Source of the DNA: Scenedesmus sp. PABB004
Taxonomy: Eukaryota
NCBI GenBank assembly: GCA_014905635.1
Contig: JABVCE010000013.1
Span: forward strand, 620,001 to 684,000
Direction of reading: 5' to 3'
Length of the DNA stretch: 64,000 bases
Part shown: positions 3,001-41,671 of the stretch, piece by piece
How positions within the stretch are numbered: position 1 is the first letter of the stretch
How the letters are laid out: every line of letters begins with the position of its first letter
Position numbers and translations under genes: made by a program
Notes under the pieces: generated by a model
Seen by the model: only the letters and a program-made list of their open reading frames with translations
Told to the model about the DNA's origin: nothing
Databases searched by the model: none

Positions 3001-6000
3001 CGCACTTGTTCTCCGGGCTGGCGCGCGCAAAGACATTGACGTTGGGCACCACCTTGCGCAGCGCGTCGTCGTCCATGCCGTCCAGCTCGGGGCCGGTCAT
3101 CACGCTGCCGTTGCCGGCGATGCCCAGCATCTTGCCGATGGCCAGCCCAGTGAGCGCGTGGTCGCCTGCGGCCGGCGGCGCGCGCGCGCGCGGCGGCGCG
3201 ATGCGCGTGGGCGGGCGGGCGGTGCCGGCGGGCGGGCGGCCGCGGCGGGCGCGGGGGCGCGGCGGGCGGCGCGGGCGCGGGCGCGCACCGGTGATCATCT
3301 TGACCACGATGCCGGCGCGGTGCGCGACCTTGACCGCCGCGATCGCCTCCTCGCGCGGCGGGTCCAGGATGGCGAGCAGCGCGACGAGCGTGAGGAAGGG
3401 GTCGGCCTTGCGCGCGAGGATGGCGTCCGCGGTCAGGCCGCTCACGTCCTCGTCCGTGGGGACCTCGGCGCGGCAGAGCGCGAGCACGCGCAGGCCCTGG
3501 CTGCTCAGCTCCTCCTGCGCCGCCGTCCAGAAGGGCAGCGTCAGCGGGACGGACCCGCCCGCGCCGGCGACCGTGGCGAGGCCGTCGTCCGCGAGCTGGC
3601 TGCAGCACATCGGGAACAGGCGGTCCGGCGCGCCCTGCGGCGGTGCGGGCGCGGGCGCGGGCAGCGTGGGCGTTGTGAGGACCGCGGCGCGGCGGCGCGG
3701 CGGCGGGGGTTTGCGACGCGCGCGCCGAGCGGCTCAGGGCCTCGGTGCGGGGGTGTGGGGCGCGGGCGCGGCGGTCCTGCAAGTGGCGGCTGTCCTGCAA
3801 GTGGTCCTGCAAGTGGCGCGCACCTTGACGTAGATGACGCGGCGCCCCGGGTGGCCCGCGCCCTGGGGCGGCTCCACCTGGTGGACCGTCGCCATGAACT
3901 GAACCGCGGCGCGGCGCGGGGCGGCGCGGGGCGTAAGCGTCGGCGTCGGCGGCGGGGCGCGCGCGCCGCGGACGTGCTGGGGCGGCCGGCCGGGTTTGGG
4001 AGGAGGCACGGCGCGCGCGGCGCGGCACAGCGCGCGCGGCGCGGCAGCACACCTTGTGCTCGCTCTCGAACGGCACGCTCGCGACGCGCGGCTTGGCGGC
4101 CTTGAGGGCCGCGGGGTCGAGCCCAGCCTTGAGCGCGCCGGTGATGAGCGCGACCTGGCGCGGTCAGTGGTGTGGCGCGGCGCGGCGCGGTCAGCGGGCA
4201 GCGCTGCGGCAGGGGCCCAGCCGCAGCAGGGGCCCAGCGGCGGCGGGGGCCCGGCGGCTGCAACCCGCGCAGCCCGGAGGGCCAGCGGCGGCGGCCTGGC
4301 GGCCTGGCAGCGCACCTCGGTGGGCGCGCCGTTGGGCGTGAAGACGGGCGCGCCGCCGGGGCCGTCCTCCTTGGTCAGCGCCGAGTCGTTGCACAGGAGC
4401 GCCCCCTCCAGCAGCGCCTTGACCGCGGCGGCGCCCTCCTCGGGCAGCGGCGCGTCGCTGCGGCACGGCACGGCGCGACGCGGCGCGGCGGGGGCGGGCG
4501 GGGTCGGCAAGGCGCGCGGCCGCGCAACGCCCGCCCCGCCGCGGCGCGCGGGGCCGCGCCCGCTCCCGCGCCAGCGGCGGCGGCGGCGCTAGCGGCGGCG
4601 GCGGCGTGGGGTGGGCCCTCTCTCACCCGAGCGTGAAGGCCCCCGTCGGCGCGTAGCCGACGCCACTGACGCGGTAGAGGGCGCCCGCGCTGCGCATCGC
4701 CACGAGCGTCATCTCGTTCTTGGTCAGCGTGCCGGTCTTGTCGCTGCAGATGACGGTCAGGCTGCCCAGCGTCTGCGCGGCGGCACGGCACGCGCGGCGC
4801 GGCAGGTCCTCAGCGCGGGCGCGGAGCGGGCGCGCGCGGCGCGGGGGCGCCGGCAGTCGGCTGCGACCGACAGCAGCCGCGCCGCACCTCCATGCAGGGC
4901 AGCTGGCGCACGATGGCGTTGTTCTTGGCCATGATGGTCGTGCCCATCGCCAGCACGATCGTCACCAGCGCGGGCAGGCCCGCGGGGATCATGGCCACCG
5001 CGATCGCGACCGCCGTCTGCGCGCGCGGCGTGGCCGACGGCGTGTGTTGTGTGGGCGCGCGGGGCCGGCGGAGCGGCGGCAGCGGCGGCCGCGGCGCGGC
5101 GCAGCGCGCGGCGCGGCGCGGCGCGCGCCTGGAACGCGACGCCGGCGTGGTGGTGCGCGTGCAGGAGGGCGAGCAGGAAGGTGGAGAGGCTGATGACGCC
5201 GACGATGATGGCGAGCCAGCGGGCGAGGATCTCCATCTGGATGAGCAGGTTGGTCTTGCCGCTCTGCACCTCGCTGACCATCTTGGAGATCTTGCCAATC
5301 TCGGCGCGGTCGCCTGCGGGGGCAGGGAGGGGAGCAAGAGGGAGAGGAGAGGAGGAGGAAGGGGGCGTGAGCGGCGCGGCGCCCGCACTGGACGCGCGCG
5401 CGCGGCGCGAGCTGCGCCGCGGCGGGCCGGGCCGGGCAGCGCGCCGCCGCACCCGTCTCGACGACGACGCCGAGGCCCTGGCCCGCGGAGACGGCGGTCG
5501 CGCTGTACGCGAGGCACTTGCGGTCGCCGAGGCCCGACGCGGCCGGGACGGGGAGCGTGTTCTTGCTGATCGGCACGCTCTCGCCCGTGAGCATGGCCTC
5601 CTGGATCTGCGGCGCGGCCCGGCCCGGCGCGGCGCGGCGCCCGGCGGGTTTGAACACACGGGCCGCGCCGGGGCAGCGGCGGCGGCGCCCGCACGGGCGG
5701 GCCGGCGCCGCGCCCGCGCCGCCGCGCCGCCGCGCGTGCGCCAGCCAGGCCTGAAGCGTCCCCCTTCCACTCTCTCGCACGCACGACGACAGCACGCGCG
5801 CACCTGCAGGTTGTGTGCCTCGAGCAGGCGCAGGTCGGCGGGGACCTTGTCGCCCGACTTTATGACCACGATGTCGCCCGGCACCAGCCCGTCCGCGTCG
5901 ACCGTCACGCGCTCGCCGCCGCGCACGACCGTCGCGGTGGGCGAGAGCATCGCCTTGATCGCGTCAGCCGCCTGCGCGGCGCGGGGGGCGGTGCGGGGGG

Positions 6001-7360: not shown

Positions 7361-10300
7361 ATGTCCTCGAGCGACGCCGACAGCGAGCAGGGCGCGCCGG
7401 GCGGGCATGGCGGGCCCGGCGACGCCGTCACGGGCGCGAGCGCGGATCCCCAGGTGCTGCAGCTCTTCTGGGACCTCGCCAGCCTCGCAGAGGTGCGCGC
7501 GCCGGCGCGCTGTCGTGACGCGCGCACGGCGCGCCGCGCGACCGGGCCGGCGGCGCGTCGTGGAGGGGCGAGCCCGGAAGCGCGCCCGCGCTGCGCGCCG
7601 CGGCGCCGCGGGCCCGGGCGGCCGCGCCAGGCGCCGCTGATGGGCGCGCGCCGCCTGCTGCTGCCCCGCGCCGCGCAGGACGTGCGCCTGACGGCCGCCG
7701 GCGCCCTGGTGGCGGCTCTGGTGGACAGCCAGAAGCAGCACGACGCGCAGCACCGCCCCGCGGACGCGCAGCCGGGCGGGAGCCTGGAGGCGGCGGACGC
7801 CGGTGGCGGCGGCCGCGCGGCGCGCATGGAGGCCGCCCTCAGCTGCTGCTCGCCCCTCATGGTGCGGGCACAGGGGCTCGGGGCGGTGGCTCGCCGCGCG
7901 GAGGGGAGGCGGGGGAGCGCCGCCGGCCTGCCGCTGCGACTGCTGCCGCTGCTGCCGCGACGCCGCTGACCGCCGCCGCCCACCCGCCCCGCCGCCCCCG
8001 CCCCCGTGCCCACCAGGCGTACGGCCTGAAGCGCCTGGCGCGCGGCCTCGCGTCCAGCCGCCAGGGCGCGCGGCAGGGCTTCGCCGCAGCGCTCGCGGCC
8101 GTGCTGTCGCGCAGCGCCGCGGCCGCCGCGGCCGCGCCGCCGCGCGGCAAGGGCGGCGGCGGCGGCGGTGAGCTGGCGGCGCCGTTTGTGAGCGCGGCGG
8201 GCGTGCTGGCGCTGCTGGACGCCTGCCTGGAGGTCACCGGCTCGATGAAGGGCTCGGTGCGTGGGCGGGGCGGGGCGGCCGGACAGGCGACGGCAGCGCG
8301 CCGCCGCGCCGCGCCGCGCGCAGGCCCGCCGCCGCCCCCGCGACCGGCGCCGCGGCGGCGCGGCGCAGCGGCACCTATAAGCACCGCCGTGCGGCACCCA
8401 CCCGCACGGCGGCTTTGCAGGGGTTCCAGATTGACCGTGCGCGGGGGGCCGACTATAACCTGCCGCCCGCCAGGGCCCCGCGTCACCGGCAGCGCGCGCC
8501 GCGCCTGCCAGCCACGCGGGGCCCTCACACTCGCATCAACGCACGCGCCCGCGCGCGCGCGCCCGTCCGTCCCTGCCCCCTCCTCCCCGTCCGCGCAGCC
8601 GCCGCTGCTCCTCACGCGCCGCGCCGCGCGCCGCCCCGCCGACCACAGGACCAGCGCGACGCGCTGCTGGGCCGTGTGTTTGGGCTCGCCGCGCTCGCGC
8701 GCAGCGGCCTGGTGGCCGCGCTGCCCGCGGCGCCGCCGGGCGCCGCCAGCGCGGCGCGCGGCGTGGCGGCCGTCGCGGAGCAGCTGGTCGGCCTGCTGCA
8801 GCGCAAGGCGTTCCTGCGAGAGAGCGCGGCGGCGGCGCTCGCGGAGCTGCTGCAGGGGCTGCGCGGCGCCGACATGGCGCAGGTGCTGCGCGAGGCGCCG
8901 CGGCTGTCGGCGCTGCTGGCGGCGGCGCCCGCGTCTGCCAGCCCAGAGGCGCTCATGCTCGCGCTGCGCCTGTGGCACGCGCTGCCGCCGGACGCGCTGG
9001 AGCACTGCCAGCTGCTGCCGCCGCTGCCCGCGGGCGCGGCGCCGCCGCCGGCGCTGTTCTGGCAGCAGCCGGGCGCGGTGCAGCGTGGCGCGGTCGCCGG
9101 CGCGGCGTCCGCGCTCTTCACGGTGGACCAGGTGTCGGCGCTGTGCCCCGCGCTGCTGGCGAGCAGCGCGAGCCACCCGCGGCTGCACCCCGTGTGGGGC
9201 TGCCTGCTGGCGCTGCTCGTGCCCGGCTTTGTGCCCGTGCGGGTGAGCGCCGCCCGAGGCCCGCGCGCCGCCTCGTGGCGCCAACCGGAGGCACGGCGCG
9301 CGCCCGCGCCGCCGCCGCGGCCGCCCGCCGACGCCCACGCGCCCGCGCGCCCGCAGGTGCTGCAGCAGCAGGACGCCGAGCAGGACGCGCCGGCGCGCCG
9401 CGCGGCGCCCGAGGCGCAGCAGCTCGCCGCGCTGTGGCAGGGCTTTGTCGAGCCGTCCTGCCTCAGCAGCAGCCACGAGCGCAAGGCGCTCGCGCTGCAG
9501 CTGCTGCAGCTGCTGCTGCCCGTGCTCACGCCCGACGCCGTGCCGGTGCTGCTCAGCAAGCAGCTGCTCGGCTGCCTGGCCACGGCGCTGCGCAACAAGG
9601 ACTCGTACCTCCACGCAAGCGCCAAGAAGTGCATGGTGAGCCTCCCTTCCCCCTGTTTGTCGGCCGTGTGTGTGTGCGTCTGCTGCGCGCCGGCCGGCGG
9701 CGGGGTGACGAGTCACGTGATTCCCCTACAGACACGCCCTCGGGCGCTGCTGACACACATCCAAAAACAGTCTTCAAAGTTTTCCGACCGCCGCAGCCCG
9801 CGCGCCGCAAGTTGTGTGCGTGTGCGTGTGCGTGGTGGGTCGCCGCTGGCTGGCTCCCGCCGCGGCGCGCAGTTGAGCGGGGTGACGAGTCACGTGATTC
9901 CCCTACAGACACGCCCTCGGGCGCTGCTGACACACATCCAAAAACAGTCTTCAAAGTTTTCTGACCGCTCCGCTGCGTGGCGCGCGGATGGCGCGGCACG
10001 CCGCTCCCCCCTGCAGGCGCGCCGCGGCTGCGCGCCTGGCTGACCGCGCCGCCCCCGCACCGCAGGAGCGCATCAACAGCTGCGCGGAGCACAGCCTCGT
10101 CGTGCGCGACGACCCGGCGCTCGCAGCCAAGCTGCGCCTCGCGCTCGCGGCCGCGCTGCAGGCCGCCAACCTGCAGCCCGGCGGCGCTGGCGCGGGCGCG
10201 AAGGCGCGCAGCGCCGGCGCGGCGCTGCTGGCGGGCCTGGACGGCGCCGGCGCGGCGGCGTACGTCGACCAGCTGCTGGGCGAGTTTGTCGCGGCGGTCG

Positions 10301-13300
10301 GCGGCGGCGACGGCGACAGCGACGACGCCGACGAGGGTGCGCGCGGCGCGAACCGGGCTGGGAGCGCGAGCGTGCCCTGCTGCCTCGCGGGCTGCGTGTG
10401 TGCCGCGCCGCGCCGCGCCGCGCCGCGCCGCGCCGCACTGCGCCGCGCCCGCGGCCGACCTGTGCGCCCCGCCCCGCCGCCCCGTCGCACCGCGCGCAGG
10501 CGAGGAGGAGGCGGAGGAGGAGGAGGACGCGCGCGTGCGGCAGCTGCTGGACCAGCTGTCCGCGGCGCTGCGCTTCGCCGCGTCGGAGCCGGCCACGCTG
10601 CGCAAGGGCCTGACCTTCCTGGCGGCGGCGGCGTTCCTGCGGCCGCCCGCGGGCGTCGACGTCACCGCGCTCGCGGGCGGCAGCGCCGCCGGCAGGCCCG
10701 CGCCCGGCAAGGGCGGCAAGGCCGGCAAGGGCAAGAAGGCCGCGGCGGCGGCGGCGGCCGCCGGCGGCGCGGAGGAGCCGGAGCAGCAGGCGCTCGCGCT
10801 GGCGGCGGCGATGCAGCCGACGCGTGTCGTGCGGCGGCAGTGCGGCGCGCGGCTGATCGCGCTGCTGCACAGCCTGCAGCACCGCGCGGCGCCGCAGCAG
10901 GCCAAGCAGCAGCAGCCGCAGCAGGGCGCCGCGCCCGCCGACGGCGAGGCCGCGGCGGGCGAGAGCAAAAAGGCGCGCAAGGCGCGGCAGCTGGCCGAGG
11001 CCGAGGCCGCCGCTGCGGCCGCGCGCGCGGCCGCGGCGGTCGCGCACGAGGCGCTCGCGGCGCGGCTGCTGAAGCTGGTCGCGGACGCGCAGTCGCTGCA
11101 CGGCGCGGCGGCGACCGCCGACGAGGACGTGCTGGAGATGGTCGAGCAGCTGCAGCGCCTCGCGTCCGCCGTGCAGGCGCACGGCGGCGACGCGGCGCGC
11201 GGCCGCGACGGCCCGGCGGCGCGCGCGCGCGTGTCGGTCGCGCTCGTGCAGCAGCTGCAGCTGCAGCTGCTCGCGGGCGGGCTGTCGACCGAGGCGGCGG
11301 GGTCAGTCGTGGACGACCTGGAACTAGCGCTCGTGCGGGGGCTGGGCATGCCGGACGAGGGCCTGGGCGTCGACGCCGACGGCGTCGCGCGCGCGCTCGC
11401 GAGCGACAGCGACGACGGCGGCGCCAGTGACGGCGACGCCAGCGACGGCGGCGCCAGCGACGGCAGCGACGGCGGCAGCGACGGCAGCGACGGCGAGCCG
11501 GCGTGGGCGGACGTGCTCGTGGACCTGCTGCTCGCGCTGCTGAGCGCGAGCAGCAGCGCGGAGGGCGGCGGGCGCCGCGGCGTGCTCGTGCCGACGGCGC
11601 CGCTGCGCGAGGCGGTGGAGGCGGTGTTCCGGGCCTTTGCCGACGACGTCACCGCCCAGGGTGAGGGCGACGGGGGGGGGGGGGGGGGGGGGGGGGCGGC
11701 GGGGGGCGCCACAGCCGCGCCGCCGCGCCGCCGCGCGCCGCCCGCGGGCCCTCATCCAACTCCGCCGCGACCGCCGCCGCCGCCGCCGCCGCCAGGCCTG
11801 GCCGACCTGCTGCGCGTGCTGGGGCAGCGCGCGAGCGAGGTGGCCAAGGAGCAGGACGAGGAGGGTGACGATGGTGAGATGGAGTTTGACGGCGCGGGCA
11901 GCGCCAGCGATGCCGCGGACGACGACGGCGGCGAGGCCTCGGGTGACTCGTCCGGCGAGGGCGGCGGCAGCGAGGAGGAGGGCGACGAGGGCGAGGAGGA
12001 GGAGGAGGAGGGCGAGGAGGAGGAGGAGGAGGAGGCGGCGGCGCCGCAGCCGGCGGCGGGCAGGGCCGCGGCGGCAGGTGAGGAGGCGGAGGATGATGAT
12101 GACGCGGCGAGCGACCTCGACGACGAGGCGATGCTCCGCCTCGACGCGCAGCTCGGCGCCGCGGTGCGCGCGAGCCTCGCGCGCAGCGGCGGCGGCGCCA
12201 AGGAGCGCGCGGCGGCGCTGCTCGCGCTGCAGCTCCGTGTCGCGGCGCTGGTTGAGGAGTGGCTCAAGCGGGTGCGTGGCAGTGCCTGGGGGCGAGCGGG
12301 CGAGGGGGCGAGGGGGCGAGGGGGGCCGGCGCCCGGGCGCGCGGGGCGGGCGGCGGGGCCGCCGCCGCGGCGGCCACAGCCGCGCGCGCGCCGCCCTGCC
12401 GCCGTGAGCGGCGGCTCACCGCGCGCCCGCTGCCCCGCCGCGCAGTGCCCCAAGAGCCCGCTCGTGCTCGGGGCGGCGCTGCCGCTGCTGCGCGCGCTCG
12501 TGGCGGCGCGCGGCGCGGGCGGCAGCCCCGTGCTCGCCGACCGCCTCGCGGCGCTGCTCACCAAGCACTATGGCCGCTGCAAGCCGGCGCTGCCGCCCGG
12601 CGCGGCGCACGGCGACGCGGCGCCCGCCAACGGCGCCGGCGCCGGCGCTGTGCCGCCGGGGCCCTACTCACTGGCCAGCTTTGAGGCCGACACGCGGAAG
12701 CTGCTGTACCACGCCTCGCGCGACCGCGACGCGCGCGTCGCCGGCGCGGCGGGCACGGCGCTGCTCGTGCTGCTCGCGGCGGGCGCGGACGCGGGCGGCG
12801 GCGCCGCGGCCGCGGCGCAGGCGTGCGCGGGCGCGGCGTTTGAGGACTACTTTGAGAAGAAAAAGTCCCGCCTGCAGCCGGCGTGGTGCGAGGCGCTGCT
12901 CGCGCGCGCGCCCGGCGCCGCGCTCGGCGGCGACGCGCCCGCGCTCGGCGCGCTGCTGCGCGCGGCGGCGCGGCCGCGCAACGACTCGGTGCGGGCGCGC
13001 GCGGTCGCGCTGCTGCCGGCGCTGCTCCGCGGCGGCGCGGGCGGCGGCGCGGTCGCCGCGCTCGCGGCGCAGCCCGCCGCGCTCGCGGCGGCGCTCGGCG
13101 GCGCGGTGTCGGGGCCGTACAGGAGCAAGGAGGGCCACGCCGCGGCGGTCAAGGCCGTGGCGCAGCTGCTTGCGGGCGTGCAGCGGCAGGGCCCGGGCAA
13201 GCGCCTCGCGGAGCTGCTCGGCGGCGAGGCGGTGCGCGAGCTGGGCAAGGCGGTGGTGGTCGTCAAGGTGCGCGGCCGCGATTTGTCCGGTGTTTGTTTT

Positions 13301-14074
13301 ACTTTCGAGGGCGCGGCGCGGCGCGGCGCGGCGCGGCGGCAGCGCACACTCGCACGCACGTACACACGCGTGAGAACCGCACCACAACCTCCACTGCGCT
13401 GGCTCATCTAGCCCAGGCCGTGGCATGGCGGTGCGCAGAGCGACCCCCACGGCCGCCCCCGCCACTTTGTTGTCCCCTGCCGGCCGCGCCAGTGCCGGCT
13501 GGGGCGGACGGGGCCGACAGACGCACCCGCACCCTCCCTCCCTCGCCCTCCCTCTGCCTGCCGCGCCGCCGCGTCTGCTCTCACCTGCGCCGCCCGCGCG
13601 CACTCGTCGCCGCCACAGGCCGCGGGCGTCCCGCCGCGCGTGGAGGGGCAGCTTGAGCGCCTGGTCGAGGCGGCCGGCCTGGAGCAGCTCGTGGCGGCGG
13701 GCAAGCCCGACCCCGCGCGCCTGGCGCTGCTGAACAAGCAGCGCGCGGCGCTGCTGGAGGGCGGCAAGCAGCAGCAGCCGCCGCAGGGCGGCAAGCCGCA
13801 ACAGGCGCAGCCGGCCCAGCAGCCGCAGGGCGGCAAGGGCGGCAAGGGCGGCAAGGGCGGCGAGCCGCAGGGCAAGAGGCGCAAGGACGCCGCGGAGGGC
13901 CAGCAGCAGCACAAGAAGAAGCGCAAGCAGGACGCGGGCGAGGCGGCGGCACAGCCGAAGCAGCCGGGCGGCAAGGAGCAGCAGCAGAAGCAGCCGGGCG
14001 CCAAGCGCAAGCCGGAGGCGGCCGGCGGCGGCAAGGCCCAGGGGGGCAAGAAGAAGGCGAAGCAGCAGCACTGA
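7361..14074 (+). CDS. MYBBP1A: DNA polymerase phi / Myb-binding protein 1A (Pol5/MYBBP1A), nucleolar ARM-like ribosome-biogenesis factor; 9 introns
   Basis: ATG 7361. N-terminal VLQLFWDLASLAE..VRLTAAGALV and YGLKRLARGLASSRQGARQGF motifs, EPAWADVLVDLLLALLS, an acidic stretch followed by LDDEAMLRLDAQL, a K/Q-rich basic C-terminus, TGA at 14072-14074 and TGTAA at 14091. Confidence 0.88.
8370..8532 (+). ncRNA. Putative intronic box H/ACA-like snoRNA (Pol5 intron 3)
   Basis: Hairpin CCGCCGTGCGG..CCGCACGGCGG with internal loop (ATAAGCA / CTTTGC), AGATTG 15 nt after the upper stem (8428-8433), a final 12-bp hairpin AGGGCCCCGCGT/ACGCGGGGCCCT, then ACA at 8527-8529. It sits in an enlarged intron of about 390 nt. 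Confidence 0.45.
9697..9794 (+). ncRNA. Putative box C/D snoRNA, copy 1 (intronic)
   Basis: Terminal stem GCGGCGG/CCGCCGC, box C GTGACGA 9705-9711, D' CAGA 9729-9732, small hairpin, C' CTGCTGA 9747-9753, guide CAGTCTTCAAAGTTTT 9768-9783 and box D variant CCGA 9784-9787. Confidence 0.75.
9875..9970 (+). ncRNA. Putative box C/D snoRNA, copy 2 (intronic)
   Basis: Terminal stem GAGCGG/CCGCTC, box C GTGACGA 9882-9888 and canonical box D CTGA 9961-9964. The body is identical to copy 1 except for one base in box D. Confidence 0.8.
13378..13522 (+). ncRNA. Putative intronic box H/ACA snoRNA (last Pol5 intron)
   Basis: About 145 nt with hairpin-hinge-hairpin-ACA layout: CGCACC/GGTGCG stem with internal loop, AGAGCG at 13437-13442, second hairpin CGGCC../..GGCCG, and ACA at 13517-13519. 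Confidence 0.55.
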
Positions 14075-22963: not shown

Positions 22964-24210
22964 TCAGCTGGCCCTGCTGTCCGCGGCGACGGCCTCCGCG
23001 GCCTTGCCGGCCGCCGCCTCGGGCGCCCCGGCGTCGCCGCCGCCGCCGCCCGCGCCCGCGCCGCTGCTGCCGGCGCCGCTGCTGGTCCCACCGCTGCTGC
23101 CCGCGCCGCTGCTGCCCGCCGCGCGCGCCAGCGCGGCCATGCCCGCGTTGGCGCGCGCGCTCGTGGCCGCCGCCTGCGCGCCCTGCGCATCCGGCGCGCT
23201 CGCCGCCGGCGCCGCTGCGCCCGCCGCCGCGCCCGCCGCCGCCGCGCGCCGCGCCGCGCCGCTGCGCCCGAGCCCCACCGGGCGCCGCGGCCTGCGCGCC
23301 GACGGCCTCGCCCGCGCGCGCGCTGCCCGTGACGCCCTCCATCGCCAGCACCTGAGCGCCGCGCGCGTGCGGCGGCGGCGGCGGCGGCGGCGGCGGGCAC
23401 GTCAGGCGGCAGGCAGGGCGGGCGGGTGGGCCGCGCGGGCCGGCGCGGCGCGGCGGCCACGCGCACCATGGGCGCCAGCGCCTGGCCCCACGGCGTGTTG
23501 AACAGCACGTCCGCCTGGCGCATGATGTAGTCCTGCGAGCGGCGCGCGGGGTCGGCGCGGCCACGCGGCCGGCGCATGCGCGGCCAGCGGGCGGCGCGCG
23601 CGCGCGGCGAGCGCGCGGCGAGCGCCGCGCCGCGCGCCGGCCGCACCGGCAGGCCCTCGCCGACGAGGAGCTGCGCGAGTTCGTGGGCAAAGTGGGTGCA
23701 GTTCATCGAGATGAGCTGGTAGGCCGTCGGCGTGAAGCGCGACGTCGCGAGCTCAGCGACGAGCTCGGCGACCATCTCGCGCGGCACCTCGGTCGTGCTG
23801 CGGCGGCGCGGCGAGCGGCGCGGCGCGTGAGGCGCGGCGCGTGGGCGGCGGCGGTCGGGGCGGCCGGCGCAGGCCAGGGCGGCAGGGCGGTTGCGGCGGC
23901 GGCGCTTGCCCGAGGTCCAGCTTGTGGTGCGGCGTGCCGAACATCGTCGTGCCCGCGCGGGCCTTGCTCACGCCGTAACCGAAGAAGTACTCGTCCGCGC
24001 CGTCGACCACGATGGAGGTGTGCCAGACGCCCTCGATCTGCGCGGCCGCGGCGGCGGCGGCGGCGGCGCGATGAGGCCGCGCGCTGGTCGCCGCGGATGA
24101 GGCCGCGCGCCGCGCCGCGCCGCGCCGCCCACCTGCTGGCCGAGCAGCATCGGGCTGAGGCTGGCCGCCATGCCACGTGTGAGGTCGTAGACCCAGCAGG
24201 AGACGTTCAT
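22964..24210 (-). CDS. DESI1: PPPDE-family desumoylating isopeptidase (DeSI-1-like); 4 introns; 3' end ambiguous (22964 or 22845)
   Basis: [60 protein letters not shown]: catalytic His (HTSI) and Cys (NCxHF). Confidence 0.9.
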
Positions 24211-26094: not shown

Positions 26095-30836
<4,742 letters not shown>

Positions 30837-32009: not shown

Positions 32010-32207
32010 CTGGATCGTCGGCTGCTGGCGGCTTCGGCGCGCGGCCGAGGCGGCGGCGGCGTGGGCGGCGGCGGCGTTTGAGCCGGGGCGCATCCCCGAG
32101 GCCGCGCCGCCGCCCGAGGTGTGCTGAGGCGGTCGTGTAATGCCTCCCCAGCGCGTGTGGGGGGCAAAAGGGGCGAAACGGCCGGTTTGGGGCCCAAAAA
32201 TCGCGAG

Positions 32208-32279
32208 AGGCCCTACCCAGGTTTGAACTGGGGTCACAGGATTCAGAGTCCTGTGTGCTAACCACTACACCATAGGGCC
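32208..32279 (-). tRNA. tRNA-Gln (anticodon CUG), copy in the left inverted-repeat arm
   Basis: Exact reverse complement of 39493-39564; T5 terminator at 32196-32200 on the minus strand. Confidence 0.95.
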
Positions 32280-32763
32280 GGAGTAGTGTCGAGCGCCGGT
32301 GAAGGCGCCGAGGTAGGAGCATGTGCATCAAGCGCGCACGTAGCGTACATGTAAAGTGTGTCTCAAAAATGACAACTGCCTCGAGGAGCCATTCTTTTGC
32401 ACCGCCGACCCCGCCATATCTTGGCAAGACCCAGGCGCGACCGTCACAAACGCGTCCGGGCCGCGCGCACGCGCAAAAAACGACGATTTACATCAAATAA
32501 TGAAAGACGCGCCGCACGCCACGTCCGTGCGACCGGGCCGGAGCCCTCCCACGGCTGCCCGCGCCGCCGCAGGCCGCGCCTGCGGCGGCTCTGCACGGCG
32601 GCGCACAGCGGCTGCCCGCGCTGCCGTGCCATGATGGGGGCCGGTCGGCCGGTCCAGCGATTACAGAGCAGCCGCCGCAAACGCGCGGGAAGCGGTCTGG
32701 GGCGCCGGCCTGTTCGCCGGCTGGCCGGCGCCAGCCAGGGCCACCACCCATCCCCCTTTGCAC

Positions 32764-33440
32764 TCAGCCGGCGCCCGGCCGCTGCGCTGCCTGGGGCAGC
32801 TGCACCGCCGCCGCCGGCGCGCCAGTGCCGTCATCAGACGGCGCTGCTGCGCCGGGCGAGCTCCAGGACGGCCACGCGCCCGCCCAGGAGCCGAAGCTGC
32901 CCCCGCCGCGCAGCAGGGGCAGGCTCGGCTCAGCCGCCCACGCCGCGTCATCATCCCCGGCGGCGACGAGCGGGCCGCCGCGTGCGTCCGCCCCGCTGCC
33001 GCCGCCCGTCTGCCCGAGCAGGCGCTGCAGCCACGGCGGCCGTGGCGTCAGCCGCTGCGGCTCGCCCGACGGCACCAGCGGCGCCGCGCCTGGCTCTTCC
33101 CGCTGCGGCGTGTCGCTGACCAGCCCGCCAGCACACGCAGCCGCCCCGTCGCTCGACGCCGCGTCCGCCTCCGCGTGCACCTCCACCACCGCGTGCAGCC
33201 GCGGCGGGCACGACAGCAGCGCACGCTGCTCGTCGTCGCCCGCGCCGCCAGCTGCCGCGGCGGCGCCGGTCGTCGTGGGGCCGCCTGGCCCGCCGCTGCA
33301 CGCCTGCACCGGCGGCGGCGGCGGCGACGTGCCGGGCCCCACCACCAGGAGCACGCCCGCAAACAGCAGCGCGCCGCCCGCCAGCGTGCCGGGCGTGGCG
33401 TGCTCGCCAAAGACCAGCGCGCCCAGGGCGTGGCTCCACA
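32764..33440 (-). pseudogene. Duplicated 3' fragment of the EamA/DMT gene (last TM helix plus C-terminal tail, about 225 codons, no ATG)
   Basis: Encodes WSHALGALVFGEHATPGTLAGG...QRPGAG-stop, the same as 38332-39008 with a few amino-acid changes; the 5' part is absent. Confidence 0.8.
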
Positions 33441-37227: not shown

Positions 37228-39008
37228 ATGGCGGTGCTGCTGCAGCCCGCGGCGTCGTTGAGCGTGGCGCTGGAGCAGCAGCGAGGCGGCGCCGCCGCTG
37301 CTCCGTCGCTGTGGGCGCGTGCGGAGCGGGCTTCCAGGCGCGGCGTGCTCGTGACCCAGCGAGCAGCCGCTTGGTCACGCGGCGCGCCCCGGCCCGCGTG
37401 CGCTCACGCCCGTCACCGGGGTTGACCGGCGCCCGCCCGCCGCCACGCGCAGGCTGTTTTGGGGCTCCGGCATCGCGTGTGCGAGCGTCGCGTGCCTCAT
37501 CTTCAGCCTGTCGGGACTGCAGGTGCGCACGCACCTGCAGAAGACGCCGGCACCGCCGGCGGTGCCGGCGTTGCGGCGCCGGGCTGACGCGCCGCGCCCC
37601 GCCCCGCGCGCCCCGCGCGCAGGTCAAGCTGACGGGCGACCGCGTGCCAGTGCTGCAACTGTGCGTGGTGCGGTCGGGTGTGTCTTTCGCGACCTCCATC
37701 GCCGTCGGCAGCGCCGCGCGCGTCGCGCCGCTCTTCGGGCGGCGCCAGCAAATGCCGCTGCTGCTCGCGCGCGGGCTGCTGGGCTCGGTCGCGATGGCGG
37801 CGAGCTACGTCGCGCTGCTCGCGCTGCCGCTGGGCGACGCCGTGACCATCGCGCAGCTGCGCCCGCCCGCGACGGCGCTGGTGGCGTGGGCGCTGCTCGG
37901 CGAGCCGCTCGGCGCGCGCGGGCTGCTGGGCTGCGCGGTGTCCCTGGCCGGCGTGGTGGTGCTGGCGCACCCGCCGTTCCTGTTTGGCGGCCACGGCCAG
38001 TGGCGCGTGGCCGGCAACCAGCGGCTGGCCGGCACGCTCAGCGGCGTGGCGAGCACGCTGGCGGGGTCGGGCGCCGCGCTCTGCGTGCGGCGCATCGGCA
38101 AGCGCGAGGCCGCGCTCACCGTGGCGCTGTGGTTCCACACCGCCACGGTCGTGCTTATGGCGCCCCTGCTGGCGGCGGGCTGGCCGCAGCCGGCGACGGC
38201 GATGGCGCCGCGCGACTGCGTGCTGCTGGCGGGCATCGCGTGCAGCTCGTTCTGTGCGCAGCTGCTCATGACGCGGGCGGTGCAGCTGGTCGCGGCGGCA
38301 CGGGCAGCCGCTGTGGGCTTCACGGGCGTGCTGTGGAGTCACGCCCTGGGCGCGCTGGTCTTTGGCGAGCACGCCACGCCCGGCACGCTGGCGGGCGGCG
38401 CGCTGCTGTTTGCGGGCGTGCTCCTGGTGGTGGGGCCCGGCACGTCGCCGCCGCCGCCGCCGGTGCAGGCGTGCAGCGGCGGGCCAGGCGGCCCCACGAC
38501 GGCCGGCGCCGCCTCGGCCGCTGGCCGCGCGGGCGACGACGAGCAGCGTGCGCTGCTGTCGTGCCCGCCGCGTCTGCACGCGGTGGTGGAGGTGCACGCG
38601 GAGGCGGACGCGGCGTCGAGCGACGGGGCGGCTGCGTGTGCTGGCGGGCTGGTCAGCGACGCGCCGCAGCGGGAAGAGCCAGGCGCGGCGCCGCTGGTGC
38701 CGTCGGGCGAGCCGCAGCGGCTGACGCCACGGCCGCCGTGGCTGCAGCGCCTGCTCGGGCAGACGGGCGGCGGCAGCGGGGCGGACGCACGCGGCGGCCC
38801 GCTCGTCGCCGCCGGGGATGATGACGCGGCGTGGGCGGCTGAGCCGAGCCTGCCCCTGCTGCGCGGCGGGGGCAGCTTCGGCTCCTGGGCGGGCGCGTGG
38901 CCGTCCTGGAGCTCGCCCGGCGCAGCAGCGCCGTCTGATGACGGCACTGGCGCGCCGGCGGCGGCGGTGCAGCTGCCCCAGGCAGCGCAGCGGCCGGGCG
39001 CCGGCTGA
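37228..39008 (+). CDS. EamA/DMT-superfamily transporter (SLC35G-like); 2 introns; alternative ATG at 37210
   Basis: LIFSLSGLQVKL..LCVVRS, LLLARGLLG..YVALLALPLGDAVTI, WALLGEPL, GVVVLAHPPFLFG, AQLLMTRAVQL and LVFGE; TGA at 39006-39008, TGTAA at 39107. Confidence 0.88.
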
Positions 39009-39492
39009 GTGCAAAGGGGGATGGGTGGTGGCCCTGGCTGGCGCCGGCCAGCCGGCGAACAGGCCGGCGCCCCAGACCGCTTCCCGCGCGTTTGCGGCGG
39101 CTGCTCTGTAATCGCTGGACCGGCCGACCGGCCCCCATCATGGCACGGCAGCGCGGGCAGCCGCTGTGCGCCGCCGTGCAGAGCCGCCGCAGGCGCGGCC
39201 TGCGGCGGCGCGGGCAGCCGTGGGAGGGCTCCGGCCCGGTCGCACGGACGTGGCGTGCGGCGCGTCTTTCATTATTTGATGTAAATCGTCGTTTTTTGGG
39301 CGTGCGCGCGGCCCGGACGCGTTTGTGACGGTCGCGCCTGGGTCTTGCCAAGATATGGCGGGGTCGGCGGTGCAAAAGAATGGCTCCTCGAGGCAGTTGT
39401 CATTTTTGAGACACACTTTACATGTACGCTACGTGCGCGCTTGATGCACATGCTCCTACCTCGGCGCCTTCACCGGCGCTCGACACTACTCC

Positions 39493-39564
39493 GGCCCTAT
39501 GGTGTAGTGGTTAGCACACAGGACTCTGAATCCTGTGACCCCAGTTCAAACCTGGGTAGGGCCT
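39493..39564 (+). tRNA. tRNA-Gln (anticodon CUG)
   Basis: GGCCCTA/TAGGGCC acceptor stem, D arm GTGTAGTGGTTAGCAC, anticodon arm CAGGA-CTCTGAA-TCCTG, T arm CCCAG-TTCAAAC-CTGGG and U discriminator; 72 nt, no intron. Confidence 0.97.
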
Positions 39565-39571
39565 CTCGCGA

Positions 39572-39576
39572 TTTTT
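39572..39576 (+). terminator. RNA polymerase III terminator (T5) of tRNA-Gln
   Basis: TTTTT 7 nt downstream of the tRNA 3' end. Confidence 0.75.
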
Positions 39577-39644
39577 GGGCCCCAAACCGGCCGTTTCGCC
39601 CCTTTTGCCCCCCACACGCGCTGGGGAGGCGTTACACGACCGCC

Positions 39645-41671
39645 TCAGCACACCTCGGGCGGCGGCGCGGCCTCGGGGATGCGCCCCGGCTCAAACGCCG
39701 CCGCCGCCCACGCCGCCGCCGCCTCGGCCGCGCTCATGCCGCCCTCGCCGCTCGCGGCTGCGGGCGACGCGCCGCCGCCGCTCGCTGCAGGCGCCGCCGC
39801 GGCGGGCGGCGGCGTGGCGGGCGGCGGCGCGGGCGACCCAAACGCGGGTGCCGCCGGCGCTGTGCCGAGGCCGCCCGTGATCCAGTCGTCGCCGGCAGCG
39901 TCCGAGACCTGGCCAAACATGGCCTTGGGCCGCCCGCCCGCGGCTGCCTGGCCAAACGCAGCGCCGCCAGACCCAAACCCGCCCGGCGGCTGCGGCGCGG
40001 CTGCCCTGCCAAACAGCACCTTGCCGGGCGCCGCGCCAAAGCCGCCGGCGCCGGCAGCGCCAAACGCTGGCGCCGGCGCAGCCGCGCCGAACGCCGCTGC
40101 CGCGCCAAAGGCCGCCGGCGCGCCAAACCCGGTCGGCTGCTGCGGCGGCTGCGGCTGGCCGAACTGCGCGGGCTGCTGTGGCTGGCCAAACGGTGCGGGC
40201 TGCTGCTGCCCGCCGTCGGTGGCCATCGCTGCGTCCATGCCGGCCGCCTGGCCAAAGCCGCCAAACGCGCCGGGCACCGCTGCGGCCGAGCCGAAGCCGC
40301 GAGGCGCTGCCTGCGCCGCCGCGCCAAAGCCGCCGCCAAAACCCTGCGCTGGCTGCTGCTGCTGCTGCTGCTGCTGGGCGGCCTTGCCGAACAGGGTCTT
40401 GCCGGGCTGCGCAGCCTGCTGCTGCGCCGCCGGCTGCTGCGCGAGCGCCTGCTCCACGCCGCCGCTGGTGAACAGGGCGACGTAGGGGTTGGGCCGGGGC
40501 CGGAAGGCCCCCGCGGCGGGCGGCCGCCCGCTGGAGCGCACCAGCTGGGCGGCGGCCGCGGACGGGCGCGCGCGGGCGGTTTTGGGGGGGGGGGGGGGGG
40601 CGTGGGCGCCAGCGCTGCACGGCGCGCGGCGCGCGGCGCGCCACCGCCAGCTGCGCGCGTGCGCTCTCTCACCCTCAGCAGGTCATCAAACTCCTGCTGC
40701 TTCACCCGCACCGCCGCCTGCAGCTCCTGCTGCAGCGCCGCGGGCTGCCGCGCGCCGCTGCGCGCCTCGGCGACGTCGCGCCAGCGCGCCTCCTCCGGCG
40801 AGACGTCGCCTGGCGGCGGCGGCGGCGGCGGCGGCGGTCGATCGGGCGACCCTCGCTCGCCGCGCGCCGCAGCGCGGCGCGGCTCGCGGGCGCAAGCGGC
40901 ACTGCGCGGCGGCTCGTCGCGGCGGCGGCAGGCGCACCCCGAATGGTGCTCGGCTGCTCCCGGTCAATGCCGTAGCAACTCAGCAGCCAGCGCGGCCGGT
41001 CGGTCTGCAGGTCCTGCTGCGCCGCAGCGCGGTAGTCCTGCTGCTCTCCCCGCGGGCCGCCGCTGCCGCCGCCGCCGCCGCCGCCGCGGCTGCCGCCGCC
41101 CCGGCTGCCGCCGCTGCCGAAGCTGCTGCCGCCGCCCCTGCTGCTTCCAAAGCCGCCGCCGCCGCCGCCGCCGCCTCCCCGGGGCGGGGGCGGCGGGGGC
41201 GGGGGCTCCTGATAGCTGCTCAGCGCGCCAAAGCGGTTGCCGCCGCCGCCGCCCCGGTCGTCGCGGTACTGCTGCTGCCCCCCGCTGCGGCCGCCCCTGC
41301 TGCCGCCGCCGCCGCGGTAGCCGCCGCCGCTCCTGCCGCCCCCGCCGCCGCGGCTGTCGTAGCCGTCATGGTGCTGCTGCGGGGGCCCGCCGCCGCCCTG
41401 CGACCGCGCAGGCGGCGGTTGGGTCGGGCGCGCGGCGCCGCCGCCGCGCGGCAGCCGACGCCCGCGCCGCGCCGCCGCCGCACCTGGTAGCCACCACGGC
41501 CCTGGCTGTTGCTGCTGTAGCCGCCTGCGGGGCGGCGCGCGGGCATGGGCGCGGCGCCCGGGCGCGGAGGCAGCGGCGCCGGACGACGGGCTTCTGCCGC
41601 CGCCGCTGCTGCTGCTGGTGCGCACCGCGGTTGCTGCCGCTTCCCCAGCGCGGTCCGCCGCCGCCGCCCAT
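39645..41671 (-). CDS. NUP42: FG-repeat nucleoporin NUP42/hCG1/Amo1-like
   Basis: WLLSCYG..GDVSPEEAR motif, many FG repeats (GFGG, PFGQ, AFGA), and C-terminal FEPGRIPEAAPPPEVC resembling the Gle1-binding tail; ATG at 41671. Confidence 0.8.

Follow-up and report, generated by a model that had tools for sequence, protein, structure and literature searches.

The locus described here raises the question of whether two almost identical units, arranged in tandem in the genome of Scenedesmus sp. PABB004, are box C/D snoRNA genes and, if they are, which nucleotides of the LSU rRNA they would guide for methylation. The units lie in a stretch of 64,000 nt (contig JABVCE010000013.1, forward strand), which was analysed as a whole and is called the window below; all coordinates refer to it. 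Based on repeat structure, box architecture and rRNA complementarity, the units at 9697-9794 and 9875-9970 are predicted to be real box C/D snoRNA genes. The explanation that we consider highly probable is that of two tandem, intron-encoded genes in a POL5-type host, whose products are predicted guides for LSU methylation. We further infer that these snoRNAs are expressed, processed, bound by protein and used in methylation.

Tandem units within a predicted intron of a POL5-type host

An earlier note on this DNA had described two 92-bp copies with one mismatch, and the repeat search returned exactly this arrangement: a 92-nt unit present at 9700-9791 and 9877-9968, 99% identical and 177 nt apart. 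The sole mismatch (9785 C versus 9962 T) falls in box D and gives copy 1 a CCGA box and copy 2 a CTGA box. With up to three mismatches allowed, either half of the unit had exactly two matches in the 64 kb, where none was expected from 100 shuffles. With the terminal stems included, copy 1 extends over 9697-9794 (98 nt) and copy 2 over 9875-9970 (96 nt), both on the forward strand. Sequence, repeat, fold and an architecture scan identify both copies, and copy 2 additionally has an Rfam match to snoR160. Between them lies an 80-nt spacer (9795-9874, forward strand) that is GT/GC-rich and of low complexity. Stable C/D snoRNAs are 70 to 120 nt long and are bound by fibrillarin, Nop56, Nop58 and Snu13; the predicted lengths of the two RNAs fit this range.

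Both units lie in sense orientation inside a 430-nt intron (9636-10065, forward strand, phase 0) that begins with GTGAGC and ends with CCGCAG. Since the intron has GT-AG ends and the reading frame continues across it, we infer that splicing takes place at 9636-10065. The upstream coding region of the host (8172-9635, forward strand, with 8172 being the start of the open frame rather than a mapped exon start) is of the DNA polymerase phi/POL5/MYBBP1A type and ends at the 5' splice site. Its 488-aa translation (8172-9636) matched Pfam PF04931 (DNA_pol_phi) over residues 159-487 with an E value of 3.2e-30, and the match reaches the last codon (ATG, 9633-9635) ahead of GTGAGC. After the 3' splice site, an open frame assigned to the host by frame extends over 10066-11430 on the forward strand; Pfam gave no match on this frame, and PF04931 recurs further downstream at 11300-13411 (E value 1.6e-16). 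The snoRNAs would be transcribed within the pre-mRNA of this POL5/DNA-polymerase-phi-type gene, a ribosome-biogenesis gene, and the intron would release RNAs that are trimmed back to the terminal stem. For the green alga Ostreococcus, one study (PMC7671301) gives 72 of 131 snoRNAs as intronic and one third of the hosts as ribosome-biogenesis genes.

Box architecture and variation in related populations

All elements of a box C/D RNA were located in both copies, in the order that had been proposed (C, D', hairpin, C', D) and in K-turn register. In copy 1, the terminal stem has 7 bp (GCGGCGG/CCGCCGC, 5' arm 9697-9703, 3' arm 9788-9794) and encloses the GGT bulge (9704-9706), box C (GTGACGA, 9705-9711), the D' spacer (9712-9728), box D' (CAGA, 9729-9732), a CGCC/GGCG hairpin seen in the fold at approximately 9735-9746, box C' (CTGACAC, 9750-9756), the D spacer (9757-9783) and box D (CCGA, 9784-9787). 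The stem of copy 2 has 6 bp (GAGCGG/CCGCTC, 5' arm 9875-9880, 3' arm 9965-9970), with box C (GTGACGA) at 9882-9888, box D' (CAGA) at 9906-9909, box C' at 9927-9933 and box D (CTGA) at 9961-9964; all of these features are on the forward strand. The K-turn register is exact in both copies, the stem being followed by the 3-nt GGT bulge and then by GA. Through this C/D K-turn, with its stem, GGU bulge and tandem G-A pairs, each RNA would recruit Snu13, Nop58, Nop56 and fibrillarin.

The C' box had previously been read as CTGCTGA (9747-9753). A C' box is indeed present, but in that register the GA falls at the end of the heptamer. CTGACAC (9750-9756) fits better, because it places GA at box positions 3 and 4 after a 3-nt bulge and mirrors, by eye, the CTGAGGG of Chlamydomonas CrCD18.

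An architecture scan was run on both strands of the 64 kb with the pattern RTGAYGA...CYGA, the two boxes 55 to 110 nt apart and, in exact K-turn register, a stem of five or more Watson-Crick pairs. The only sites that it returned were the two snoRNA copies. The null set of 100 first-order Markov windows gave 0.03 sites on average; three windows had at least one site and none had two. Copy 2 is a duplicate and does not count as an independent event. Minimum-free-energy folds of both copies retain the terminal stem. Folding energy z-scores for the two copies were -1.20 and -0.64, neither of them significant, and because C/D snoRNAs are weakly folded in general these values were used neither for nor against the prediction. 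Low-GC islands elsewhere in the window were also considered as snoRNAs and turned out to be coding exons, microsatellites or tRNA regions, none with C/D architecture.

Outside the shared core the flanks of the two copies had been described as covarying. The diverged flanks do pair, but only 5 bp lie outside the core (the outer 3 bp in copy 1 and 2 bp in copy 2), and the covariation rests on these pairs. By a hand estimate, the chance of these five base pairs is about 1% in 80% GC DNA, and stem covariation is suggestive, not strong, as a sign of selection.

The non-canonical box C, with C at position 5, was found as GTGACGA in both copies, as the earlier note had it. It agrees with RUGAUGA at six of seven positions, and the G-A at positions 3 and 4 is intact. 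Box D matches CUGA fully in copy 2 and at three of four positions in copy 1, again with the G-A intact. The U-U pair beside the tandem G-A pairs is replaced by C-U in copy 2 and by C-C in copy 1.

Box D of box C/D RNPs is a nearly invariant CUGA, and the sole difference between the copies is a U-to-C change in this very box. It is therefore conceivable, though in our judgment unlikely, that only copy 2 works and that copy 1, a recent paralogue, is decaying, with the C-C beside the G-A weakening snoRNP assembly. Published terminal D boxes are in line with this reading: nearly all are CTGA, the exceptions being TTGA in three rows from pine and CAGA in a single row from cotton, and CCGA does not occur among them. 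Copy 1 is otherwise undecayed, however, with 91 of the 92 core positions identical and the longer stem of the two (7 bp); its CCGA is retained in a contig from a related population; and K-turn geometry constrains position 2 of box D, the one changed here, less than the other three. A functional copy 2 beside a decaying copy 1 would refine the explanation of two tandem intronic snoRNA genes and would not replace it. If both copies are active, the pair is a natural in vivo test of freedom at the U-U position of the K-turn.

Among the sequencing runs listed as matching parts of the window there is no RNA run; the three that match are DNA metagenomes and come from two studies. Contigs from two freshwater metagenome runs, 95 to 99% alike, span 9455-10018. 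All six differences listed in the metagenome contigs are intronic and outside both snoRNA units, two of them lying in the spacer (9831 and 9844); two of the four differing letters in one contig record have no listed position and were assumed to be at the contig ends. By hand calculation, the chance of all six listed differences missing the units is (189/383)^6 = 0.014. In the related population contig, which covers 9700-9906, all of 9700-9791 is unchanged, and CCGA is thus retained. A metagenome scan for both guide cores with a gap of 25 to 55 nt gave no further dual-guide homologue, and the window itself was not recovered by it. Five metagenome loci (two distinct sequences) that matched both cores were rejected as chance matches, having neither boxes nor stems.

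Predicted guides and their LSU targets

The D guide CAGTCTTCAAAGTTTT occupies 9768-9783 in copy 1 and 9945-9960 in copy 2, on the forward strand, and would pair with AGAACTTTGAAGACTG in the LSU rRNA. The scan covered eukaryotic LSU fragments up to approximately 600 nt from the 3' end of the LSU; in five of eight fragments the duplex has 16 bp (one G-U) and in three it has 14 bp. The proposal that this guide is complementary to a conserved LSU segment is borne out by all eight fragments. The LSU identity of one locus (L081) was given by Rfam LSU_rRNA_eukarya at 2011 bits. None of 2000 shuffled D guides reached 16 bp, the highest shuffle being 15. A secondary match of 11 bp is located approximately 1075 to 1124 nt upstream in the LSU in four of the eight fragments. 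Matches of the 16-mer target to viral contigs (56 loci) were all set aside as chance, their flanks being unrelated and free of rRNA. Targeting by the D guide would presuppose AGAACUUUGAAG in the LSU rRNA of the organism.

Pairing of this 16-nt guide with the LSU would place fibrillarin on the C opposite the fifth guide nucleotide. The D+5 nucleotide is the C of GAGAAC and corresponds to Arabidopsis 25S C1479, its position being taken from alignment rows 1474-1490. The earlier note had named the same C and counted it as about yeast C1469. That numbering fits the equivalences in PMC8053127, where yeast C1437, A1449 and G1450 are Arabidopsis C1447, A1459 and G1460, and the LSU stretch up to the D target is of constant length across 37 LSU fragments. 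The same paper gives C1479 as a RiboMeth-seq site with the guide SnoR147 (Table 1) and a MethScore of approximately 0.8. Values for this site were 0.80 to 0.86 in three wild-type replicates and lower in fib1-1. In yeast and human the equivalent site is listed as 'Not modified' (PMC2875012, Table 1).

The D' guide core GATTCCCCT is found at 9719-9727 in copy 1 and at 9896-9904 in copy 2, on the forward strand, and would pair with LSU AGGGGAATC. The duplex has 9 contiguous bp, with guide position 1 and positions 11 to 17 unpaired, and is marginal against the roughly 10 nt or more expected of a guide to rRNA or snRNA that ends beside box D or D'. Nine bp is also the length that the earlier note had given while calling the pairing weaker; the target is better supported than was held there because D'+5 falls on Arabidopsis 25S G2125, which is fully methylated (MethScore 0.98, guide U60.1F/2F). 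The G in question is the third of LSU AGGGGAAUC, and the shorter guide before D' probably acts on it in the same way as the D guide acts on its own target.

A short duplex of this kind also admits the reading that the D' guide is orphan, vestigial or engaged in accessory pairing only, and that the RNA effectively works with one guide. We take this reading seriously but find it doubtful. Nine Watson-Crick pairs were reached by 108 of 2000 shuffled D' guides (5.4%), and by 1252 of 2000 when G-U was allowed, and box D' (CAGA) is degenerate, as is box C' (CTGACAC). On the other side, D'+5 lies exactly on the Arabidopsis site methylated at 0.98, Arabidopsis snoR60 has an identical core and CAGA box, the same core is carried by CrCD22, and the target AGGGGAATC was found in 12 of 12 LSU fragments that extend so far. 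Nine pairs are also within the working range in Arabidopsis, where nine or more consecutive pairs form at 100 of the 104 assigned sites and two sites work with eight (PMC8053127). Our analyses also suggest that the two LSU methylations mapped in Arabidopsis, Cm1479 and Gm2125, are maintained throughout the green lineage.

Relatives among algal and plant snoRNAs

At gathering thresholds, Rfam reported only two tRNAs in the whole window. The best match of either copy was snoR160 (RF00203), at 23.9 bits for copy 2 (E value 0.32, 9876-9969, whole model aligned) and at 21.4 bits for copy 1 (3' part only), scores that lie below the RF00203 gathering score of 42. The Rfam search that had been proposed as a check for a known family thus gave only this sub-threshold match, and the family is known through Z270/snoR160a and CrCD18. 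The D guide stretch GTCTTCAAAGTT, directly before box D, follows the RF00203 consensus column for column and is present in the rice and maize sequences. The Arabidopsis 'snoR160' of two papers does not belong here; it is an unrelated H/ACA RNA, and the shared name is a collision.

The supplement of PMC5122169 lists Chlamydomonas reinhardtii CrCD18-1, -2 and -3 as 'Z270 / CrCD18', credited to Chen et al. 2008, and places their cluster on the minus strand of scaffold DS496113 at approximately 1,674,044-1,674,690. In the synonyms tabulated by that paper, CrCD18 is the same as Z270, and rice snoR160a the same as Z270a. Comparison with CrCD18 was made by eye on the sequences in that supplement, with no aligner. 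The 5' end GCGGGGTGA(T/C)GAG (stem, bulge, box C) shares 12 of 13 nt with CrCD18-1, and the 3' end CAGTCTTCAAAGTT(C/T)TCTGACCGC (guide, box D, stem) shares 23 of 24 nt. The GGT bulge is the same, CrCD18-1 and -3 repeat the D guide, D' and C' are separated by a GC hairpin, and C' has the form CTGAnnn. The CrCD18 genes, too, are 90 to 99 nt long and stand in tandem on one strand, as three copies separated by a few hundred nt. In contrast, CrCD18 has an unrelated D' spacer and D' box, with CCGA after another guide, and by eye the CrCD18 D' spacers have no common stretch with GTCACGTGATTCCCCTA. CrCD18 also differs in that its box C, GTGATGA or TTGATGA, is canonical and its box D reads CTGA in all three copies.

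The sub-threshold Rfam scores speak for the reading that there is no snoRNA at this locus and that a duplicated intron piece or part of a mobile repeat carries the boxes and the rRNA complementarity by coincidence. We hold this to be extremely improbable. The K-turn architecture (three of 100 null windows) occurs jointly with an anchored 16-bp rRNA match that no shuffle reached, and both predicted sites are mapped plant methylation sites. The ends are near-identical to those of a described Chlamydomonas snoRNA, no listed population differences fall within the units, and the unit has only two copies in the 64 kb. Taken as snoRNA genes, the pair most likely belongs to the lineage of Chlamydomonas CrCD18 and rice Z270 (snoR160a, RF00203). 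Judged by its sequence, it adds a member to a known family, one whose D' guide is re-assorted and whose boxes depart from consensus.

For annotation, the value of the locus is a POL5-type intron with two predicted snoRNA genes that are missed at Rfam gathering thresholds. The CrCD18/Z270 family would then include a second alga-like organism, one that is extremely GC-rich. Of possible interest to specialists are a guide pairing unlike that of Chlamydomonas and land plants, an example of guide re-assortment, and the U-to-C changes that affect both U-U positions of the C/D K-turn where the genome has approximately 80% GC; neither is surprising enough to alter current views. The pair is well formed, but it is an ordinary representative of a snoRNA family that has been described before.

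Rice snoR160a/Z270a and its grass homologues have the D guide core GTCTTCAAAGTT right before CTGA and the same predicted LSU target, and the box C of rice and maize snoR160 (ATGAGGA) likewise departs from consensus at position 5. They differ in a D' half that is not alignable and in an unlike stem sequence, and the grass genes are AT-rich whereas the Scenedesmus genes are GC-rich. The D guide was not found in one supplementary text file each of PMC7671301 (Ostreococcus) and PMC7464842 (Arabidopsis). With Arabidopsis snoR147 the likeness concerns the target, the same nucleotide being addressed by the D+5 rule. AtsnoR147 is an 83-nt C/D RNA, detected on northern blots, whose D guide serves 25S Cm1479 (Cm1471 in the old numbering); unlike the present pair, it lies in the polycistronic cluster snoR163/snoR147/snoR95 and not in an intron (PMC2875012). 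The rice 'snoR147a' of PMC5122169 is a different RNA from Arabidopsis snoR147.

The Scenedesmus pair would do the job of Arabidopsis snoR147, with a D' element that would be that of land-plant snoR60/U60 and of CrCD22. Plant snoR60 and CrCD22 share the D' guide core GATTCCCCT and the target G equivalent to Arabidopsis 25S G2125, and Arabidopsis snoR60 (U60.1F/U60.2F, in fibrillarin introns) has the same unusual CAGA D' box. They have other D guides, other ends and a canonical box C, and their D' duplex (GGATTCCCCTT) is longer, with 13 bp by eye for Arabidopsis snoR60 compared to 9 bp here. One could envisage a consolidated double guide, formed by recombination of a CrCD18-type and a CrCD22-type gene, so that one RNA serves the equivalents of both Cm1479 and Gm2125, with GC pressure having replaced both uridines of the U-U pair; we regard this history as quite unlikely. 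In Chlamydomonas (CrCD18 and CrCD22) and in land plants (Z270/snoR147 and snoR60/U60), these two guides are carried on separate genes.

The two predicted snoRNA units and their probable host intron

The earlier note had proposed, from the nucleotide sequence, a tandem pair of box C/D snoRNA genes, and our analysis bears out that prediction as correct overall and well described. The two predicted units lie on the plus strand at 9697-9794 (copy 1) and 9875-9970 (copy 2). A repeat search found within the intron a direct repeat of 2 x 92 nt (9700-9791 and 9877-9968) that is 99% identical, the sole difference being C at 9785 versus T at 9962, and, when up to three mismatches are allowed, the window contains exactly two instances of each half of the unit, where none is expected. 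Copy 1 opens with a 5' stem, GCGGCGG (9697-9703), directly followed by three unpaired bases, GGT. Box C is GTGACGA (9705-9711), and a 17-nt spacer separates it from box D', CAGA (9729-9732). Next, beyond a short GC hairpin, is box C', which we place at 9750-9756 (CTGACAC); then come a 27-nt D spacer, whose final 16 nt are CAGTCTTCAAAGTTTT, box D at 9784-9787 (CCGA; CTGA in copy 2) and the 3' stem CCGCCGC (9788-9794). Coordinates in copy 2 are those of copy 1 plus 177, and its terminal stem is GAGCGG/CCGCTC (9875-9880 and 9965-9970).

Both strands of the 64 kb were scanned for K-turns, defined by a C-like box, a D-like box 55 to 110 nt 3' of it and a stem with five or more Watson-Crick pairs in exact register. 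Copies 1 and 2 were the only sites; 100 first-order Markov windows gave a mean of 0.03 sites, with any site at all in three of them. In both copies the minimum-free-energy fold contains the terminal stem as well as the internal hairpin; the z-scores of these folds (-1.20 and -0.64) are unremarkable. Four inner stem pairs are common to both copies, and aligned flanks beyond the duplicated core have merely scattered matches in GT/GC-rich low-complexity sequence. The covarying flanks claimed earlier are real, but since only three outer pairs in copy 1 and two in copy 2 lie outside the core, the covariation amounts to just five base pairs.

We read the surrounding 430 nt (9636-10065, plus strand; first bases GTGAGC, last CCGCAG), from the GT-AG ends and the reading frames, as a phase-0 intron of a plus-strand gene. 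The open frame upstream matches the Pfam family DNA polymerase phi (PF04931, E 3.2e-30), which we take to be the yeast Pol5/MYBBP1A family, and the match extends to the final codon ahead of the intron GT. A second PF04931 match lies at 11300-13411 (E 1.6e-16); the piece immediately 3' of the interval, 10066-11430, has no Pfam match. G+C is 76-85% throughout the window. Intronic snoRNAs in ribosome-biogenesis hosts and tandem isoforms are both usual in green algae, according to PMC7671301. A Bystin-family exon (44331-44486, minus strand; PF05291, E 5.1e-21) belongs to another ribosome-biogenesis gene, some 35 kb away from the one that hosts the snoRNAs, and the K-turn scan found nothing snoRNA-like near that exon.

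Among sequencing runs, the stretch was found in no RNA run, and parts of it are present in three metagenome runs of DNA that belong to two studies. Freshwater contigs, compared at 80% likeness and breaking at the repeat, cover 9455-9729, 9700-9906 and 9814-10018 at 95-99% identity; they come from two runs of one study, which may be near the source of the window. The listed differences are three substitutions (C>T at 9650 and 9983, C>A at 9831), insertions of GT after 9665 and of GCTG after 9844, and one base missing at 9643. All six are intronic and outside the units, with two of one contig's four 'other letters' having no listed position, and no listed difference in these contigs falls in 9697-9794, 9875-9970 or the covered exon part. 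Of the 383 intron bases covered, 189 lie outside the units, and a hand calculation puts the chance of six out of six falling there at 0.014.

Elsewhere in the window, a 1402-nt inverted repeat (32039-33440 and 38332-39733; 99% complementary, 4891 nt between the arms) has two identical tRNA-Gln(CTG) genes, one per arm (minus strand at 32207-32279, plus strand at 39493-39565), and in each arm a 370-nt island of lower GC. A tRNA-Met (CAT; 24056-24129, minus strand) was called by ARAGORN and is absent from the Rfam gathering-threshold scan. The window also has long runs of (CA)n and (GT)n, including a (CA)n microsatellite exceeding 200 nt at about 28790-29010, in an intron or flank beside a minus-strand coding exon. 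The exon at 5183-5344 (minus strand) matches PF00122 (E1-E2 ATPase) weakly, at 20.8 bits against a cut-off of 28.1, and probably belongs to a P-type ATPase gene.

Predicted pairing of the two guides with LSU rRNA

The guides are the antisense stretches upstream of box D and box D'. PMC8053127 tabulates RiboMeth-seq values nucleotide by nucleotide, and Arabidopsis 25S positions 1459-1503 were taken from it; there, 1474-1490 is GAGAACUUUGAAGGCCG and C1479 is marked Nm. A 23-nt pattern from these rows was used to find eukaryotic LSU fragments from other genomes as targets, and it located at least 37 contaminant fragments in prokaryote assemblies. These short eukaryotic LSU rDNA contigs (L057-L093), found in at least 37 genome or MAG assemblies of a GTDB-based collection, represent contamination and include plant-type and fungus/alga-type variants; one of them, L081, matches LSU_rRNA_eukarya at 2011 bits and has an adjoining 5.8S gene. 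After GAAG, the 37 matches listed continue with ACTG (12), GCCG (21) or ACCG (3), and one ends after two letters.

Pairing of the D guide was anchored by requiring its fifth base from box D to pair. The site equivalent to GAGAACUUUGAAGGCCG was the best in all eight longer fragments, with a duplex of 16 bp including one G-U in five and of 14 bp in three, and the D+5 nucleotide was the C of GAGAAC each time. None of 2000 shuffled guides reached 16 bp on L081. A radiolarian LSU primer contains GTCTTCAAAGTTTTC (PMC3154480), so some lineages have AAAAC, which would pair with the D guide without G-U. A second, weaker site of 11 bp, AGAACTTTGAA, lies about 1075-1124 nt upstream in four of the eight fragments (in one of them as AGGACTTTGAA, with two G-U pairs); Table 1, in the available text of PMC8053127, gives no Arabidopsis methylation near it.

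Arabidopsis C1479 is C1471 in the old numbering. PMC8053127 gives it a wild-type MethScore of 0.80-0.86, against about 0.6 in fib1-1, with SnoR147 as guide, and PMC2875012 describes AtsnoR147 as an 83-nt C/D RNA with a 13-bp D guide, detected by northern blot. Yeast and human are 'Not modified' at the equivalent position in Table 1 of PMC2875012. The target had been placed earlier at about yeast C1469. That estimate is consistent with the equivalence of yeast C1437, A1449 and G1450 to Arabidopsis C1447, A1459 and G1460 (PMC8053127), since the stretch from these positions to the target is of equal length among the 37 matches listed.

The D' guide core, GATTCCCCT, pairs with LSU AGGGGAATC. In each of the 12 fragments long enough to include it, this motif follows the D-target pattern at a distance of 617-666 nt. 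The duplex is 9 bp, with guide position 1 and positions 11-17 unpaired. Nine Watson-Crick pairs were obtained with 108 of 2000 shuffles (1252 with G-U allowed), one fungus-like fragment offers an alternative target of 10 bp, and taken on its own the D' pairing is weak. Of the 104 assigned Arabidopsis sites in PMC8053127, 100 show nine or more consecutive pairs and two show eight, which puts a 9-bp duplex at the lower edge of the working range. The D'+5 nucleotide is the third G of AGGGG and corresponds to Arabidopsis 25S G2125 (rows A2122, G2123, G2124, G2125, G2126, A2127), with a MethScore of 0.98 and the guides U60.1F/U60.2F (AtsnoR60) (PMC8053127). On balance, we lean towards a functional D' guide.

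The units would be freed from the spliced or cleaved intron, trimmed back to the terminal stem and bound by the core box C/D proteins via the K-turn. Fibrillarin would then be guided to the C of LSU rRNA that corresponds to Arabidopsis C1479, and probably also to the G corresponding to G2125. The roles of the core proteins are well established for the box C/D family. The D+5 rule is likewise established, and is applied in PMC8053127.

Relation to known snoRNA families

Judged from its sequence features, the predicted pair is a member of a known family and no new kind of element. The earlier note had suggested Rfam as a check on this, and the outcome was divided: at gathering thresholds no snoRNA match was found at copies 1 and 2, but with E-value thresholds snoR160 (RF00203) was the only snoRNA match, based on the boxes and the D guide, and that family is already described. 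Copy 2 scored 23.9 bits over the full model length against a gathering score of 42, and copy 1 scored 21.4 bits over the 3' part. Rice snoR160a is named 'Z270a / snoR160a' and the Chlamydomonas member 'Z270 / CrCD18' (PMC5122169 supplement). According to PMC5122169, homology searches, with few exceptions, cannot connect land-plant with green-algal snoRNAs, which the sub-threshold score fits.

The three CrCD18 genes lie on one scaffold and the same strand within 650 nt (PMC5122169 supplement). Compared by eye, with matches counted manually, the 5' ends of CrCD18-1 and our copies (GCGG of the stem, the GGT bulge, box and next G) agree in 12 of 13 nt and the 3' ends (CAGTCTTCAAAGTT and, after one change, TCTGACCGC) in 23 of 24, and both RNAs have a GC hairpin between D' and C' and the C' form CTGAnnn. 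Together with the GT-AG introns, the long (CA)n and (GT)n tracts, the extreme G+C content and the partial presence in freshwater metagenomes, this near-identity of the ends to a Chlamydomonas snoRNA suggests a chlorophyte green alga as the source. Box C is canonical in CrCD18, ATGAGGA in grasses and GTGACGA here, so position 5 is variable within the family. CrCD18-2 has an altered D guide, with a T run before CAAAGTTCT (PMC5122169 supplement). By eye it looks as if this guide fits the second LSU site AGAACTTTGAA(AA...), for example in L081 at about 379, where the D guide of our copies makes only 11 bp; if so, paralogues of the CrCD18 family would drift between two similar LSU sites.

The D' spacer of CrCD18 is unrelated to that of our copies. 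The likeness on this side is to Arabidopsis snoR60, in which GGATTCCCCTT precedes a D' box of the same unusual form, CAGA, and to Chlamydomonas CrCD22, which likewise has GGATTCCCCTT and is present in four tandem copies (PMC5122169 supplement).
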